Source: an uncultured candidate division Zixibacteria bacterium (lineage in GTDB: Bacteria > Zixibacteria > MSB-5A5 > GN15 > FEB-12). Taken from it: DNA of 64,000 nt. Location: positions 736,001 to 800,000 of the forward strand of contig CAVTJJ010000004.1 in NCBI GenBank assembly GCA_963735035.1. The letters run 5' to 3'. Of the stretch, positions 4,431 through 51,023 are shown piece after piece (within the stretch, counting starts at the first letter, position 1; each line of letters opens with the position of its first letter). The notes under the pieces were generated by a model. That model was not told where the DNA came from. It made no database searches and saw only the letters and a list, made by a program, of their open reading frames with translations. A program made the translations under genes and the position numbers.

Positions 4431-5564
4431 TCACTTCGCCAACACGGCGGCCTCTTCGGTAATGTCGATTCCCACCGGGCACCAGGTAATGCATCGCCCG
4501 CACCCCACGCACCCGGGCACGCCGAACTGGTCCTGCCAGTAGGCGAGTTTGTGCATCAGCCACTGACGATAACGCGACTGCTCCGATGCTCGTACGGCGC
4601 CGCCATGAATGTACGAGAAGCCGACCGAGAAGCAGGAATCCCAGCACCGCTCCCGATCGGCCTGCTGACCGGCCAGGTCGGTCGAATCGATCACGTTGAC
4701 ACAAAAACAGGTGGGACAGACCATAGTGCAGTTGCCGCAACTGAGGCAGCGTTCGGCTACTTTCTCCCAATGCTTGGAGTCGAATCGCGTATTGAGCCGA
4801 TCTTTGAGTCCGGCAGTCTTGAGATGCTTGCCCATAGATGAGACAGCCTGATCTATCACGTGACGCGCGGCTGTCTGATCGGCGTCGGTTGCAGGTTGCG
4901 CCGGAACCGTATCGAGCAGAGCCTTCCCCTTTTCAGAACCGACTTCGATTACAAAAGAGTGATGTCCGTCGGCGAAAACTTCCGTCAGCGCCAGATCGAA
5001 CCCGGACTTTGCTTCGGGACCGGTATCCATTGAGGCACAGAAGCAATTTCCGCCCGGACGGGCGCAATTGACTGCAATTATAAACGCATTGGCTCGCAGC
5101 CGACGGTAATACGGGTCGTCATAAGTGCCATGCGACAATATCTGGTCATGAATTGCCAGCGCTTTGAGTTCGCAAGGGCGGACTCCCAGCAATGCGATTC
5201 TTGGATTGTCCGCTTCACCGGGGGACTGAATCTCAAAGCTGTGACCCGATTTCCGGGCCGACCAGATTTTGTGGAGCGATGGATAGAAGATCTTCTTCCA
5301 ACCATGAGGCCCGACTACATAGTCAAATAGCGCCGGGCGGTCCGATTTCACGAGCCGGTAGCGGCCGCCTGATTGTTCATCCCGCCAACCTGTGGGCAGT
5401 TGCTCGAGGTTCGTGATTTCCTGATAAGTTACCGCATTCTCGCGAACGGTCGGTCCGAAGATTCGGTACTGTTGAGTTGATAAGGCATCGAGCAAGGCCT
5501 GAAGATGTGCCTTATCTAGAGTGTGAAGGGCCACGGAGGAACTTACCTGGTTTTCATTCATCAT
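4431..5564 (-). CDS. Sulfhydrogenase beta subunit (AsrA-like 4Fe-4S protein)
   Basis: GVRPCE, CFC, CLSCGNCTMVCPTCFC, CVGCGRCITWCP. Confidence 0.92.
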   Translation of the reverse strand: MMNENQVSSSVALHTLDKAHLQALLDALSTQQYRIFGPTVRENAVTYQEITNLEQLPTGWRDEQSGGRYRLVKSDRPALFDYVVGPHGWKKIFYPSLHKIWSARKSGHSFEIQSPGEADNPRIALLGVRPCELKALAIHDQILSHGTYDDPYYRRLRANAFIIAVNCARPGGNCFCASMDTGPEAKSGFDLALTEVFADGHHSFVIEVGSEKGKALLDTVPAQPATDADQTAARHVIDQAVSSMGKHLKTAGLKDRLNTRFDSKHWEKVAERCLSCGNCTMVCPTCFCVNVIDSTDLAGQQADRERCWDSCFSVGFSYIHGGAVRASEQSRYRQWLMHKLAYWQDQFGVPGCVGCGRCITWCPVGIDITEEAAVLAK

Positions 5565-33991: not shown

Positions 33992-34030
33992 TCAGTCTGC
34001 AACTCCGCAGTCACCTCACAGCGAAGCATC

Positions 34031-34081
34031 TGTCTCATTCCTGCCACAAACACCCCGCATATCTGTCTCATTTCTGCCACA
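34031..34081. promoter_or_regulatory. Tandem enhancer-like sites TGTCTCA-N4-TGCCACA
   Basis: Two copies at 34031-34048 and 34064-34081, 33-bp period. Confidence 0.65.
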
Positions 34082-34432: not shown

Positions 34433-35080
34433 TTGGATCCGACGACTGACCAAACGTGCGAGGAACTGATTTTGGAAAACAGCTCGACATATGCGGCCTT
34501 TGCCGGTGACCGACTCATCGCATCGGGTGATCTCAGGGATGTCTTATTGAAGGTGAAAACGTTCTTGGATGAAGATAACGAAAAACAAGTTTTGATCTTC
34601 GAGGATTCGAGTGGGAAGCAGATCGACTTCGATTTCCGGGGCACACCTGAAAAGGTTCTTGAGCGACTATTGTCCCATCCCCATCTTGTCAGTGGAGTCG
34701 CGCCCGCTAAGCCAAGAACTGGTCCGGGGCGACCGAAACTGGGAGTGGTTTGTCGTGAAGTATCATTGTTGCCTCGTCATTGGGAATGGCTCCAGCAACA
34801 GCCGAGCGGAGCGTCGGCGGCGCTTCGACGGCTGACCGAGGCGGCGATGAAGCGCACCGACAGCAATGGGTCGACTCGATTAGCGCAAGAAGCGGCGGGC
34901 AAATTCATGTGGGCGATGGCAGGTAACCTGCCCGGTTTTGAGGAAGCGTCGCGGGCCCTTTACGCGGGAGATCGCGAGCGACTCGATTCAACGATGCAAG
35001 GGTGGCCGAATGATATCCGCGAGCATGTCAGAAGGTTGTTAGTTCGGCCAGATCGCTCGGAATTTCGACAGGGGGAGTGA
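34433..35080 (+). CDS. DUF2239 family protein
   Basis: GRPKLGVVCREVSLLPRHWEWL, GASAALRRL, AGNLPGFEEASRAL. Confidence 0.88.
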   Translation: MDPTTDQTCEELILENSSTYAAFAGDRLIASGDLRDVLLKVKTFLDEDNEKQVLIFEDSSGKQIDFDFRGTPEKVLERLLSHPHLVSGVAPAKPRTGPGRPKLGVVCREVSLLPRHWEWLQQQPSGASAALRRLTEAAMKRTDSNGSTRLAQEAAGKFMWAMAGNLPGFEEASRALYAGDRERLDSTMQGWPNDIREHVRRLLVRPDRSEFRQGE

Positions 35081-35179
35081 TTTATGCAGTTAAGCTCCCG
35101 CGGCTGGACGTTAACAGAACTTTTACGGCGCTCATCAATTACCTGAAGACAGCTGCATGATCCCACGCCTCTGGCTACC

Positions 35180-35335
35180 ACCGGAACCCCAGCCGTTTCG
35201 GGCGTCTCGATAGGCCGAGGCGAGTTTCTGGCCCAGACCGTAGACGTGGTTGCGAGCCTCTTTGCTGCCGAGCTTCTCGTAAACGATCTTGTCGCGGGAC
35301 CAGTAGTAGTAATTCCGGGTTAGCGTGCCATTGCC
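35180..35335 (-). pseudogene. Rhs core fragment (cassette 4, no toxin tip)
   Basis: YYYWSRDKIVYEKLGSKEARNHVYGLGQKLASAYRDARNGWGSGG; near-identical to 38700-38824. Confidence 0.75.
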
Positions 35336-35944
35336 AGAGAATCGTACGCCCAGTCCACATCATCGATCTCACGCAACCCTGTGGGTCTTTCAGGTTGCAC
35401 ATCATTCAACACGTTGAGCACCTACAATCTGGAGGATCACGGAAAGATCTCGGGCTAATTCTGTCATCTTTCCAGCACCGAAATCCAGTTCGTAAATGAC
35501 CGTTTGAAAGTCATAATCCATGCCACGGTTTAGTTCTGGAAGATCGGTTTGCAGAGTTAGATTGAAGCAACAGAGCTTTCAACCACGGCAAGCAGACTAT
35601 CGATTTCGGGTATCTCCTGCCAATTCACTGGTAATGTATCGAGCGGAGGGAACGCTGCACTTGTGTCCCAGTCATTGCACCAGTAATAGCGTACTATATC
35701 ATGATACGGCTCCCTAAGATTCCGAGTACTTCCATTGCGCGTATCATAGCACGTCACTTTGATGCAACCACGCCCTGCGCCTTTCCATCCTGTGTCCGCA
35801 TCTTCCAGGTACTTGATTATGTAGGCATTATGTTCTTCCTGTGCCTGGCAACCGAACGCCAGACAAGTCATCAACAGACCAAGTGTTAACGAACAGGATC
35901 TAGTAAACTCGAAGACTCTTGAACCATCTTAACCGGATGAGCAT
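35320..35944 (-). pseudogene. Putative lipoprotein immunity gene for cassette 3, apparently frameshifted (longest open part 35557-35874)
   Basis: RBS and ATG at 35944; removing one T joins it to LMTCLAFGC lipobox; 3' end uncertain. Confidence 0.45.
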
Positions 35945-36012
35945 GTTTGCACTTCCTATCTATAAAGGTGACACGCTTCAACGCAGCTGAGCCACCACAA
36001 CTTCTCCGCAAA

Positions 36013-37002
36013 TTAGAGGCCCATCAATCTCTTATAAGCCCCGTCTGGCCATATGCCATACTCGTTTGTGCGATACGATTGGCTAGGAACGCCGTCTCTA
36101 TTCCATCTCACAGCCAATTCCATAGGCGTGTTGGCTATCCCCCCGTAGTCTCTCGCTGGTCTTGGTCCGGAATACCCACCTGCATCAAGGTCCTGCATAA
36201 CGGCGTCTACACAGTTATTATCAAGTGAATAGGAGCCATCACTAGTAAAGTCTGCCACTGCATCGGCAACATCCAACATATTGCCAGTACCACCGAAGTA
36301 TCCAGTAACATCGTATGCACAAAAGGAATCATACGTCTGGAGGTCCTGACGGTATGTGTGCTCACCCGTATCGCCTTTCCACTTACTTTCGTATACACCC
36401 TCCGTGGTTCCGTCCTCCCAGACAAGACTTACCTCTATTGACATATGACCTGCTGTAGTCCCATCATCTACGCCATTGAGGTTGCATGCGTCCAGTCCCC
36501 ATACGAACACCTCTACTTTGATATCTGCTCCCAGAGCAATTGCACACTCCCACTTTTCACGGCGCTCCTGTCTATCCTGCTCTCTGTTCAGATCCTCATT
36601 TAAAGGATTCCAACCTGAGCCGTCCCCACAGTAGTTGGGTGAAAACGGATCATGATCGTCCAAATCTCCCATGGTGACATTCGGTGAATGAATCGATGAT
36701 ATGTCAAATAATGGTGGCGGTGGCGGTATGCACGCCATCCCGCTCGGGTCGTACAGCATGATCGGGTTGCCCTCGCCATACGAATACGCCGACGCACTCG
36801 CCAAAATCGGGTCAGGGGAGAAGAATCGGCCTAACACCGCATTGTAATACCTCGGCCCGAAATCCAGCATCCCGACCCCGGGGTCTTCCTTGCCCAGGAA
36901 CGTGTACACACTGCCACCGCCCGACATCGAATACACCTCGCCGTACGGATAGTACTCGATACGCGCCAGCACCGCCGTCTCGCTCATCCCGACCCGCACC
37001 GA
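36013..37002 (-). CDS. Orphan Rhs C-terminal cassette 3 with papain-like tip
   Basis: YYPYGE, FLGKE, FGPRYYNAVLGRFFSPDP, YSYGEGNPIMLYDPSG; tip GHMSI...YSLDNNCVDAV. Confidence 0.8.
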   Translation of the reverse strand, partial: SVRVGMSETAVLARIEYYPYGEVYSMSGGGSVYTFLGKEDPGVGMLDFGPRYYNAVLGRFFSPDPILASASAYSYGEGNPIMLYDPSGMACIPPPPPLFDISSIHSPNVTMGDLDDHDPFSPNYCGDGSGWNPLNEDLNREQDRQERREKWECAIALGADIKVEVFVWGLDACNLNGVDDGTTAGHMSIEVSLVWEDGTTEGVYESKWKGDTGEHTYRQDLQTYDSFCAYDVTGYFGGTGNMLDVADAVADFTSDGSYSLDNNCVDAVMQDLDAGGYSGPRPARDYGGIANTPMELAVRWNRDGVPSQSYRTNEYGIWPDGAYKRLMGL

Positions 37003-37015
37003 GAGCGGGTACCTA

Positions 37016-37438
37016 TTACCTATGGTGCCTCCAGAACAAGAAACAGCCGTATACTAGAACGCTCAAGCCCGCCAGAGCATATGCGGTTTCAATAATCGGC
37101 CATTCGATTTGACTTCTCCTAACCAGCTCCTCAACCAGTGTGATGGCACTTATTAAGGAAATGGTCATAGTCAAAGCCAACAGTGACAGGTATAGTCTAG
37201 TCGGTTTGTTCTGACTACAATTTGAGGAAGATCGCGCCAATCGCTTGCTGCAGTATGTTACTACTAAACCTATTGTCGCAATCAGTATGACCAGCAAGAT
37301 TACAATTGTAGCAATCAATGGAGTAGAGGTTGATTCGCACCACGAAGTGATTCCGAAAGGCCAAATCAGCCCGATCAGCCAAATTGAGATCACGGTTAGC
37401 ACCAGGGTTGTGCTCCAGATATGCCTATAAGTGAGCAT
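37016..37438 (-). CDS. Putative 4-TM immunity protein for cassette 2
   Basis: Four hydrophobic segments; RBS AAGGA; directly after the toxin tip. Confidence 0.65.
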   Translation of the reverse strand: MLTYRHIWSTTLVLTVISIWLIGLIWPFGITSWCESTSTPLIATIVILLVILIATIGLVVTYCSKRLARSSSNCSQNKPTRLYLSLLALTMTISLISAITLVEELVRRSQIEWPIIETAYALAGLSVLVYGCFLFWRHHR

Positions 37439-37463
37439 TGCGAGTCCTTTTCATTTGGTAATA

Positions 37464-38830
37464 CTACTTCCCGGTCATAGGATTGTTCATCCAGTCATTG
37501 CCAATATGTGGGGCTTCAATGTAATAGAAGAAGATGAAATCTACAGCTGCAGGGTAGAGGTAGTCATCATAGAGTTGTGACGGCCGCAGCTGGTAAGTGC
37601 CGTATGTCACGAGCGCAGTACTCATAAATGGTGCCGTTACGCTACATTCTGCACCGGCAAGCGCCGTCAACGATCCCGCAGTCACTTGAGCAATACATGC
37701 AACAAGTCTAATTGTGCCCCAGCTCCTCCGGGCTCCATCCTGTCCGTTGCGAGCTTAGCGAGCCATTTGACTCCAGATGCAATTTGTCGAGGCCCCAGGC
37801 CAGCCTGAACTTCACTAGAACCACTACCATTCACGCCCTCTGGTGCACCATATTCCATTAGCATGGTTCCCCCACCGGGCCTCTTGATACCTGCGAAGGG
37901 ACCTAACGGACCCGAGCCGCCAGGTCCATTATTGGGCTGAGGAATTCCACCGTTGCCGTTTCTCTGTTGCTGTGTGGCCGCCTGCCTCGCTCGTTGCTCC
38001 GCCCCGTAGCTCAAGGCTTTTTGAGCCGTTGCCTCCGACTCCCGTCTCCTAAACTCGTAATCGGCTCGCATACAGGCAAGATCATCTCTCCTCTTAGCCG
38101 CCCGATAAGCATCCGAGCCGCTCGGAAGAGCCTCAAGCAAGGCTGACGGTGAATAGTCGCCAATCGCGACAATGGAGCCATCCACCATGTACGTGCCGGG
38201 CCCCAAGACTGCTTCATCAGCGTGGCCCGTAGCAGCCAACCTCGCAAGGTAATCCGGGCTGTCGTAAGTTGGTGGTGGCGGCGGCACGTAGTACATCCCC
38301 GTCGGGTCATACAACATCACTGGGTTACCAGCAGCATAGGAATACGGAGAATCACCAAACAAAATCGGGTCAGGGGAGAAGAATCGACCTAACACCGCAT
38401 TGTAATACCTCGGCCCGAAATCCAGCATCCCGACCCCGGGGTCTTCCTTGCCCAGGAACGTGTACACACTGCCGCCGCCCGACATCGAAAACACCTCGCC
38501 GTAAGGATAGTACTCGATCCGCGCCAGAACCGCCGTCTCGCTCATCCCGACCCGCACCGATCCATACTGATCATTAACATAATACGTCATTTGCGTATAG
38601 CAAGAGTCTTGTAGCGGCGGGTCTTCGGGGGGATCGGTCTCCGAGCCGGTGGTATCACCCGGGTCCTGGTCCATCATCATCATCATCATCATGCCACCGC
38701 CACCGGAACCCCAACCGTTTCGGGCGTCTCGATAGGCCGAGGCCAGTTTCTGGCCCAGACCGTAGATGTGGTTGCGGGCCTCATTGCTGCCGAGCTTCTC
38801 GTAGACAATCTTGTCGCCGGACCAATAGAA
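37464..38830 (-). pseudogene. Orphan Rhs C-terminal cassette 2 with hydrophobic tip, split near 37685-37740
   Basis: YYVNDQYGSVR...PDPI...YAAGNPVMLYDPTG; frame is open upstream of the Met run to about 38850; tip continues in ORF 37464-37685. Confidence 0.75.
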
Positions 38831-39007
38831 GCTCTGAGTTGTGAAAACGTCTTTTCAAATCCCCCGGACTTTGGCGTGACCAGCGCAATCGAGGCTCAAT
38901 CATCGTACATGTACCATTTTCCAGCAACCGATATATCACCACGCCCAAGCGCGAACAGGACGGGTCCGATATATAGGAGTGACCAGCTTGTTACAGCGCA
39001 AGGGCTT

Positions 39008-39256
39008 TCAGTCGTTCTGGGTTGACTTCATCTTGCGCCGCAAGGAATAGATCGAAAATATGATCGTAGCAACCGCAGTTATCCATCCGATCACATGAAA
39101 GACCTCCCATACTGACGCAAAGCCCGGAAGCCATTTATCTAATAATGTCACAGGATCCTCTATAAAGAACTCAAGCGCAATTACCGTGAGTGCCGTCAGC
39201 GCAATGGCGCCATACACCACCACAAAAAGAGAGCGAGCGAAGGATTTGAAAGACAT
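39008..39256 (-). CDS. Putative 2-TM immunity protein for cassette 1
   Basis: Two hydrophobic helices; RBS AAGGAG; directly after the toxin tip. Confidence 0.65.
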   Translation of the reverse strand: MSFKSFARSLFVVVYGAIALTALTVIALEFFIEDPVTLLDKWLPGFASVWEVFHVIGWITAVATIIFSIYSLRRKMKSTQND

Positions 39257-39280
39257 ACCAGAGAGCTCCTTCTGAAAGTG

Positions 39281-40089
39281 TCACGGATAGGTTGGCAATA
39301 TGTCCTGAGGCCCATAAGGTGCAAAACCCGTACTCGTTCCGGAACGCATCATATAAATGCGATTTGCCTCAGTCAAGCTTTCCCAAGCTTTCGCATAATG
39401 ATAACCTGCTTGATATGCGAGACCATTGGCAGGACCAGCCCAATTAGTCACAGACACAATTGCGCCAACAGTAGTAACGCCACTAAAGATCGGCCCGACG
39501 ACAGCAATGGTAGCGGCAAGAGTGTAACAGTTTGCCACAAAACCGTGCGCCTCTGCGGAGGCAAGTAATAGCCCGGCCTTGAGATTAGAATCGGTCATAC
39601 CGGAAATCTTCTCGTTGCTAGGTCAGGTAGAAGCTCACTTACCTTATTGGCCCAATACGCAAAATCGAAGTCCCCACCGGCACTCGCCTGATCTTCAATC
39701 TTATTCAGAGTCTCCGCTACCTCCGGTATACCTGCCAAGAAGCACGCTGTTTCCCTCCTCTCGCGTCGATTCTGGTCAGCCTGCTCTCTGTTCAAGTCGT
39801 TGTTGTACGCGATCCCGCTTGAGCCGTCCCCAGAGTAGTTGGGTGAAAACGGATCAGAGTCGTCCAAATCTCCCATGGTGGCATTCGGTGAATGAATCGA
39901 CGATACGTCAAATAATGGCGGAGGCAGCGGTACGCTTTCCATCCCGCTCGGGTCGTACAGCATGATCGGGTTGCCTTCGCCATACGAATATGCCGACGCA
40001 CTTGCCAAAATCGGGTCAGGGGAGAAGAATCGACCTAACACCGCATTGTAATACCTCGGCCCGAAATCCAGCATCCCGACTCCGGGGTC
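39281..40089 (-). pseudogene. Orphan Rhs C-terminal cassette 1 with hydrophobic tip, split near 39598-39620
   Basis: DPGVGMLDFGPRYYN...YDPSG begins at the tRNA 3' end; tip continues in ORF 39281-39598. Confidence 0.75.
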
Positions 40090-40092
40090 TAG

Positions 40093-40165
40093 CTCCCGCG
40101 GCTGGACTTGAACCAGCGACCCGCTGATTAACAGTCAGCTGCTCTACCAACTGAGCTACACGGGA
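40093..40165 (-). tRNA. tRNA-Asn(GTT), CCA not encoded
   Basis: TCCCGTG-TAGCTCAGTTGGTAGAGC-A-GCTGA CTGTTAA TCAGC...GGTTCAAGTCC...CGCGGGA-G cloverleaf. Confidence 0.95.
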
Positions 40166-40204: not shown

Positions 40205-40232
40205 ATAATAGACCTTTTCGACATTTTGTCAA
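40205..40232 (-). promoter_or_regulatory. Sigma-70 promoter of tRNA-Asn
   Basis: TTGACA-N16-TATTAT on the minus strand. Confidence 0.6.
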
Positions 40233-50946: not shown

Positions 50947-51023
50947 GGTACCCCACAGCTTGCTGTGGGGAGGATGGCAAATAAGGGGCGGCTTGTAGGG
51001 CGGGTCCGCTTCGAACCCGCCAA
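50947..51023. repeat. REP-like cluster left of the HNH gene
   Basis: ggtaccccacagcttgctgtggg and GTAG-footed tgtagggcgggtccgcttcgaacccgccaa. Confidence 0.8.

Follow-up and report, generated by a model that had tools for sequence, protein, structure and literature searches.

We analyzed a 64-kb window (C4:736001-800000) of the genome of an uncultured Zixibacteria bacterium, which is assembled as 3.61 Mb in 6 contigs at 96.9% completeness; contig C4 is 1.63 Mb long. The window means this whole stretch of DNA, and coordinates given without a prefix are positions in it. The subject of this report is an islet of about 5 kb that lies between the 3' end of the tRNA-Asn gene and a distant copy of that end. 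The islet consists of three headless Rhs modules (U1, U2, and U3) with small genes behind them and a fourth Rhs core fragment (U4), all on the minus strand together with the tRNA gene. Neither an rhs gene with a matching core nor a recombinase gene accompanies it. We think, at a probability of roughly 55%, that the islet is what decay has left of an island with an rhs locus that had integrated at the tRNA gene. It is possibly kept for its immunity genes.

The repeat-bounded islet and its Rhs modules

The tRNA-Asn(GTT) gene, which ARAGORN located at 40092..40165 on the minus strand, is the sole tRNA gene of the window and the single Asn tRNA gene among the 49 tRNA genes of the genome; we regard it as the probable integration target. 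Its last bases and 2 further nt form the proximal repeat (40091..40113), and the copy of the tRNA 3' end, about 5 kb away, is the distal repeat (35093..35115). The two match at 21 of 23 positions, with 2 mismatches, and the first 17 nt are exact (40091-40107 and 35093-35109). This 17-mer and its inner 13-mer each occur at these two places only across all 6 contigs, and shuffles of the window gave a mean of 0 matches. The boundary repeat is not a chance match, and the claim of a first-pass annotation that a 17-bp copy of the tRNA 3' end bounds about 5 kb of DNA is confirmed. The idea that the distal repeat is part of a longer decayed tRNA copy was rejected, because in local alignment 975 of 5000 shuffles and 614 of 5000 real windows scored at least as high. 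That is, the tRNA-likeness of the distal repeat past 23 nt is not significant.

The Rhs modules were recognized with TIGR03696, the RHS repeat-associated core domain, whose curated cut-off is 32.5 bits. U2 (59.1 bits), U3 (56.7 bits), and U1 (43.1 bits, covering positions 32-76 only) all passed this cut-off, which agrees with the three co-oriented units of core end, tip, and small gene, plus a fourth core fragment, that had been described at first pass. Across 9 sequences, the core end keeps 31 invariant columns (DPG.G.LDFGPRYY to YDP.GM), beyond which the sequences diverge. The Rhs head, with its shell of YD repeats, is missing from every unit: in-frame stop codons stand 5' of U2, U3, and U4, and U1 abuts the tRNA gene.

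U1 (39595..40089, minus strand) starts in the middle of the core end, 1-2 nt past the proximal repeat, and its first ATG is at 40074. It comprises the last approximately 50 Rhs core codons from DPGVGMLDF, a linker common to U3, and a short tip of about 60 aa. The start of this tip is 42% identical to that of the U3 tip over 60 aa, and the U1 tip stops after about this length; it looks cut short. U2 (37682..38854, minus strand) is an open frame of 390 aa that starts at FYWSGDK; it comprises the core, which runs through a G-rich, seven-Met, and D/P-rich insert to the core end, then a region of about 110 aa, and a G-rich end of 95 aa. The region of about 110 aa is a pre-toxin region common to modules from metagenomes, and the sequences differ beyond it. 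U3 (36013..37005, minus strand) starts with SVRVGMSE, 13 nt past the stop codon of the preceding open reading frame (ORF), and its tip of 170 aa is the only full-size one in the islet. U4 (35178..35326, minus strand) is a 5' core fragment only. It runs from YYYWSRDK to GWGSGG, covers the first approximately 50 codons of a U2-type core, and is 92% identical to the corresponding part of U2.

The insert in U2 belongs to a low-complexity segment in the core of this Rhs subfamily, in which a G-rich stretch, 3-7 Met codons, and a D/P-rich stretch follow one another; in U2 the Met codons are seven ATG at 38672-38692 on the minus strand. The Met run is kept in all eight sequences that cover it (U2, the metagenome loci L036, L040, and L037, and the relatives P0001, P0002, P0003, and P0004), and it is common to headless modules and to the long parent-type frames of L040 and L037.

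One or two small ORFs stand behind each of the three tips. Of these six, two share bases with the stop codon of the tip before them, and hydrophobic stretches occur in three. Behind U1 is a 105-aa ORF (39281..39598, minus strand) whose start overlaps the U1 stop codon, the position of an immunity gene; it has one hydrophobic stretch and belongs to no family. It is followed by an 82-aa ORF (39008..39256, minus strand) with two hydrophobic stretches and sub-threshold Pfam matches only. The 73-aa ORF behind U2 (37464..37685, minus strand), also of no family, begins with a GTG that overlaps the U2 stop codon. The 140-aa ORF at 37016..37438 (minus strand), which has about four hydrophobic stretches and no family over the cut-off, is a candidate membrane immunity protein. 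A soluble 105-aa ORF follows U3 (35557..35874, minus strand); it had no Atlas hit, and no homologue was found for it. None of the small ORFs of the islet matched a Pfam or NCBIfam family over the cut-off, had a paralogue in the genome, or had a partner-gene match in the 21 metagenome loci described below.

The tips were likewise searched. They matched no Pfam family, Pfam at E values up to 10 gave nothing usable, and comparison with the sequences of the PDB gave nothing below E 0.5. A HMMER search of the U3 tip over 1.84 billion representative sequences returned the tip itself and one spurious FN3-repeat protein only. Compared with one metagenome tip, the U3 tip shows 24% identity and keeps the GHMS and NC.DA motifs. 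In the Atlas it fell near TseH-like and IcsB_M/Lnb_N-like clusters at 0.95-0.96, which hints at cysteine hydrolases of the TseH and IcsB_M type; we treat this as a lead only. The AlphaFold2 model of the U3 tip, built from a 2-row alignment, is weak (predicted local distance difference test score, 65.4), and Foldseek found no match for it in the PDB at E <= 0.001.

The cores are 82-92% identical to one another over 130-300 nt. Since the synonymous divergence (dS) between the units is 0.24-0.34 and the dN/dS ratio is 0.18-0.32, the units are not local duplicates; they diverged as working genes and arrived separately. The G+C content of the tips and partner genes is 0.45-0.50, against 0.555 for the genome.

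As for expression, a promoter-like site of the tRNA-Asn gene (TTGACA-16-TATTAT, 11 of 12 positions) lies at 40205..40232 on the minus strand; it is a consensus match only. In the region as a whole, 6 promoter-like sites were found against 4.8 expected from shuffles, which is no excess, and no terminator-like site was seen between the tRNA-Asn gene and U1. In-frame starts before the core-end motif are present in U1 (the ATG at 40074), U2 (the ATG run from 38692), and U3 (a GTG at 36999).

Beyond the distal repeat lies a convergent DUF2239 gene (34433..35080, plus strand), whose stop codon is 13 nt from the repeat. Its protein had no match in 5 relatives or in the tRNA-Asn loci of 16 relatives, and the gene may be part of the variable region and not of the conserved flank. 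In the low-G+C gap separating the DUF2239 gene from a response-regulator gene is a 21-nt direct repeat (34028-34048 and 34061-34081; 20 of 21 positions identical, 33 nt from start to start), a candidate that may be a regulator binding site.

Parent genes, recombinases, and the site in relatives

The U2 core (591 nt) was compared with the whole genome at the nucleotide level, and only the four islet copies matched; no full-length parent was found in this way. As a second query we used the 882-aa parent-type frame of the metagenome locus L040, and it found no head in the genome. The array is thus detached from any parent in this assembly, as had been claimed at first pass.

The statement that there is no full-length Rhs gene is correct for the islet and the window but not genome-wide. 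On contig C2, TIGR03696 also matched two long frames, of 1621 and 2759 aa, as well as a fragment of 124 aa. The two long frames are full-length Rhs genes of unrelated core, with 30-41% amino acid identity to the islet core end and no nucleotide match. The 124-aa fragment is an ordinary orphan, whose core end is nearly identical to that of the 2759-aa parent. Together they make up a conventional Rhs locus (C2:116769-132293), in which the 2759-aa frame, a downstream frame of 361 aa, the orphan (122604-122816), and the second Rhs gene of 1621 aa are found. This genome thus offers an example of the usual layout of parent and orphan, from which the islet departs. A TssC sheath gene (PF05943) was not found in the genome.

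These results bear on a further suggestion of the first-pass annotation, namely that the array is a trans-acting reservoir of tips. The only full-length Rhs genes are those on C2, so that homologous tip swapping has no substrate in this genome and the suggestion is unsupported. The array cannot donate its tips here because no gene has a matching core.

No integrase had been noted in the islet at first pass, and we also found no match to PF00589 or PF00239 in the islet or the window. The genome as a whole has three tyrosine recombinases (PF00589) and one large serine recombinase (on C3), with the matches on C5, C2, C3, and far away on C4. The serine recombinase is a 574-aa frame at C3:2932-4676 that overlaps the 3' end of a tRNA-Met gene (complement of 4601-4676). 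A convergent layout of this kind, abutting or overlapping, is also found at the tRNA-Asn gene of two relatives (L098, from genome G021, and L101, from genome G047). The recombinases of G021 and G047 are 37% identical to each other and 22% to the C3 enzyme. The proposal that the array is mobilized by an integrase encoded elsewhere is also unsupported: the serine recombinase sits at tRNA-Met and is distant from the enzymes at tRNA-Asn, and the DNA adjoining the tRNA-Asn gene, where arm sites would lie, is Rhs core.

We then compared the tRNA-Asn locus with those of relatives. The tRNA query was matched in all 36 relatives at E <= 1e-10, and the best match was of full or near full length in 27. 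Among these 27, a contig ended within 200 nt downstream of the tRNA-Asn gene in 8 and within the same distance upstream in 1. We retrieved the locus from 16 relatives; of the 133 ORFs in these loci, the 99 that lie no more than 5 kb downstream of the tRNA gene were scanned. The order HprK-PDZ-tRNA-Asn was kept in 8 of the 16, and the downstream content was different in all 16. Recombinase genes stood directly behind the tRNA-Asn gene in three loci, a tyrosine recombinase in G018 and large serine recombinases in G021 and G047, and transposases were present in two. In G016, the response regulator and kinase that flank the islet are also found downstream of the tRNA-Asn gene, behind 4 kb of other, uncharacterized genes. 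The flanks of the islet are thus chromosomal and syntenic, and the DNA 3' of the tRNA-Asn gene is a variable hot spot in the relatives. None of the 16 loci contained an Rhs module or any relative of the islet ORFs. The annotation had also envisaged that relatives might carry a full rhs gene plus an integrase at this site; that combination was found in 0 of the 16.

Related modules were found in public data. L036, one of 21 metagenome loci that we fetched, belongs to a close relative, whose rpoA-rplQ segment shows 92% nucleotide identity. Its headless module has the same 5' boundary as U2 and U4 but is not at a tRNA, its site being between rplQ and another gene. The module (L036:1819-2409) lies between rplQ and the next conserved gene, and our own genome has, at C4:1404877-1406688, 1.8 kb of different DNA between two copies of an element resembling repetitive extragenic palindromic (REP) sequences. 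L038 has two core copies behind a gene like those of insertion sequences (IS), in L039 and L044 the modules are cut elsewhere, and L040 and L037 have longer frames of parent type. IS200/RAYT-like frames are found beside the Rhs modules of L037 (2110-2520) and L044 (8065-8613). A single defined 5' end of the cassettes was considered and rejected: U2, U4, and L036 share one, and U1, U3, the second copy of L038, L039, and L044 each begin elsewhere.

The REP-like element is a dispersed palindrome of about 30 nt, present in the window at about 50990-51022 (C4:786990-787022) and in about 40 places genome-wide, and it lies directly 3' of the truncated Rhs module in L036 (L036:2407-2472). A role for it in the islet was rejected, since none of its 40 blast matches in the genome falls in the islet.

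Against 185,579 species genomes, the U2 core found no relative, and an alignment-based search of these genomes gave 4 distant loci only, at 27-50% identity. A blastn search of plasmids matched the tRNA only; phages and viral contigs were outside this search.

Origin of the islet

The repeat, the modules, the missing parent and recombinase, and the variable site in relatives are observed, whereas the following scheme, from integration through displacement and deletion to whatever role the islet has today, is what we infer. By site-specific recombination, a genomic island would have entered the only tRNA-Asn gene of the genome at its 3' end, and the 17-nt repeat would mark the two ends of the island; the repeat and the hot-spot behavior of the site point to this step. 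The rhs locus of the island would have been built by serial C-terminal displacement, to which the heterogeneous, diverged, and co-oriented modules point. U1 would be the tail of the former main gene, and U2, U3, and U4 would be older tails that were pushed downstream with their partner genes. The differing positions at which the cores of headless modules start, here and in metagenomes, are as repeated displacement predicts. Later deletions would have removed the recombinase and the whole Rhs head, fusing the core end 1-2 nt from the tRNA, and would also have taken most of U4; the abrupt junction of tRNA and core and the stub of U4 point to such deletions. Decay is visible in the fragmentary U4, in the early end of the U1 tip, and in the fact that only the U3 tip is of full size. 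The ordinary layout on C2 and the low G+C content of the tips and partner genes also favor this scheme. What is left over may be neutral wreckage, or may be retained since the small genes still protect against the toxins of neighbors. Transcription could come by read-through from the tRNA promoter. The first-pass annotation had also named the remnant of a larger element as a possibility, and this fits best, the evidence being indirect, as an intact version was seen in none of the 16 loci.

Several observations weigh against a decayed island. None of the three tip frames or of the six small ORFs is interrupted, so that decay is far from complete. Among 5.8 billion clusters, every one of the proteins closest to the islet core (60-83% identity) has a length of 347-488 aa, and full-length relatives, one of which is labelled Zixibacteria, reach 36-53% identity only; the headless form may be a common state rather than an accident, although short contigs could also give this pattern. 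An intact island, with a recombinase and a full rhs gene of the islet core type at tRNA-Asn, was absent from the 16 loci, the 185,579 species genomes, and the 21 metagenome loci. Finally, two separate deletions must have ended near the repeats, one within 0-2 nt of the proximal repeat and the other at a distance of 62 nt from the distal repeat, and such a placement is a coincidence unless a recombinase made the cuts.

The alternative that survives best is that the islet is an immunity bank under selection. Here the small genes would neutralize the Rhs toxins of neighbors, and the toxin-tail ORFs would serve only as a leader for transcription and translation. This is compatible with the remnant model and differs from it only in whether selection still acts. 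The open state of the six small ORFs agrees with it. The two that overlap the stop codon of a tip suggest translational coupling, the three with hydrophobic stretches resemble membrane immunity proteins, and the array is co-oriented with the strong promoter-like site of the tRNA, with no terminator-like site seen in between. Toxin tails related to these are present in metagenomes, so the toxins circulate, and there is precedent in parentless immunity clusters (10.1101/471110; PMC7400221). However, the small ORFs match no known immunity family, the U3 partner is without any relative, and neither paralogues in the genome nor partner genes in the metagenome loci were found. The hallmarks of recombinase-associated acquired interbacterial defense (rAID-1) clusters, a XerD-like recombinase and intergenic repeats, are also absent. 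We hold active selection for immunity to be possible but clearly the less probable account.

It was also considered that the islet moves in its present form, as a circle of headless cassettes. In this case, U4 and U1 would be the halves of one core unit that holds the attachment (att) site, split when a recombinase acting in trans integrated the circle at tRNA-Asn. The two partial cores are complementary (U4 covers residues 1-54 of the U2-type fragment, and U1 begins at residue 138) and stand in the order of a circular permutation. Both lie beside the att repeats, whereas the remnant model needs the two well-placed deletions mentioned above. Furthermore, tRNA-Asn in two relatives and tRNA-Met in this genome are targets of large serine recombinases, enzymes that have simple sites. 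If it were true, such a circle, expressed from the tRNA promoter, would let toxin tips and immunity genes pass between the members of a community while the Rhs head, which is costly, stays behind. Nevertheless, the joined form would be short of 84 core codons and would contain a stop, so that it is not one unit. The serine recombinase of this genome is only 22% identical to those at tRNA-Asn and is at another tRNA gene, and no second copy of the array or of its junctions was found in any collection searched. We consider this account improbable.

Equally doubtful is the idea that the modules are toxin-antitoxin pairs, expressed from starts inside the core and acting in addiction or growth regulation. 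In every unit an in-frame start precedes the core-end motif, in U2 the run of seven ATG behind a GGTGG-rich stretch; the partner ORFs are tightly coupled, and orphan Rhs tails expressed from internal promoters act as type II toxin-antitoxin modules in Salmonella (PMC7043789). The conservation of the Met run in all eight covering sequences might be taken in the same sense, but the run also lies within the parent-type frames of L040 and L037, which makes it a feature of the subfamily core and not a start that arose for orphans. In addition, promoter-like sites are not enriched, and the U1 tip looks truncated.

An assembly artefact, in which a misjoin across the repeated cores produced the tRNA/Rhs junction or the unit order, might be suspected from the identity of the cores and the abrupt start of the first one at the tRNA end, but it is very improbable, given a contig of 1.63 Mb in a 6-contig assembly, flanks on both sides that are syntenic with relatives, repeats short and diverged enough to assemble through, and the fact that a misjoin would not make a matching tRNA-end repeat 5 kb away.

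Comparison with known systems

Orphan rhs-CT/rhsI arrays are reportedly treated in the work of Koskiniemi et al. (2014). We found no earlier report of a headless, tRNA-repeat-bounded Rhs array without a recombinase; this statement has a thin basis, with subscription journals outside its coverage. Nothing published on this genome or its sequence was found either, and what has been written on Rhs orphans provided general parallels only.

According to the portions of the papers at hand, orphan rhs-CT/rhsI and cdiA-CT/cdiI arrays form by C-terminal displacement (Poole et al. 2011, PMC3150448; review PMC4436062), and the roles proposed for them are those of a fossil record, an immunity repertoire, and a silent reserve. 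Compared with the arrays described there, the islet is alike in its kept core end, variable tip, and small putative partner gene, in the tandem arrangement in one orientation, in the varying lengths of core retained, and in the lower G+C content of the tips. The difference is that the known arrays, as far as these sources go, lie behind a full-length gene whose core is homologous to theirs, and this permits tip swapping, whereas the islet is without such a gene and starts at a tRNA.

The islet also resembles the AID and rAID-1 clusters of Bacteroidales (10.1101/471110) and the immunity islet of Salmonella Typhi directed at the type VI secretion system and contact-dependent growth inhibition (PMC7400221). 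These are leftovers of toxin/immunity systems in genomes that do not encode the cognate toxins; the leftovers lie on or come from mobile DNA, and protection against neighbors is proposed for them. In contrast, the toxin tails are largely intact in the islet, and the immunity function of its small ORFs is putative. The rAID-1 clusters are further defined, in the text available, by a XerD-like recombinase and integron-like intergenic repeats (10.1101/471110), and the islet has neither: no recombinase was found in the window, and the repeats common to the units are core and linker segments only. Homologues of known immunity proteins, another mark of rAID-1, were not seen among the small ORFs in Pfam or NCBIfam over the cut-off. 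Unlike an integron cassette array, the islet has no tyrosine recombinase in the window and no inverted-repeat element common to the units.

Islands that are linked to tRNA genes and carry cdiBAI share with the islet, on our reading of it, the integration at a tRNA 3' end and a cargo in which displaced toxin/immunity pairs stand behind a polymorphic toxin locus. They are large and keep the integrase and a full cdiBAI, whereas the islet has 5 kb and neither of these. The main and orphan Rhs tails of Salmonella Typhimurium (PMC7043789) are comparable as tails without a head that have internal in-frame starts ahead of the core-end motif and a closely linked partner. There, however, the orphan is beside its parent and promoters and toxicity were measured, whereas the islet is known from its sequence alone.

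Orphan arrays, tRNA-linked islands, parentless immunity islets, and internally expressed orphan tails are thus all already described in the parts of the literature cited here, and the islet is no new kind of system. The islet bears on the debate whether orphan modules are fossils, immunity stores, or reserves; the role of a reserve is unsupported here, there being no recombination partner in the genome. We think that its interest lies in what it would represent in an uncultured lineage, that is, Rhs tails and partner genes that have outlived both the toxin delivery part and the mobility genes of their island.

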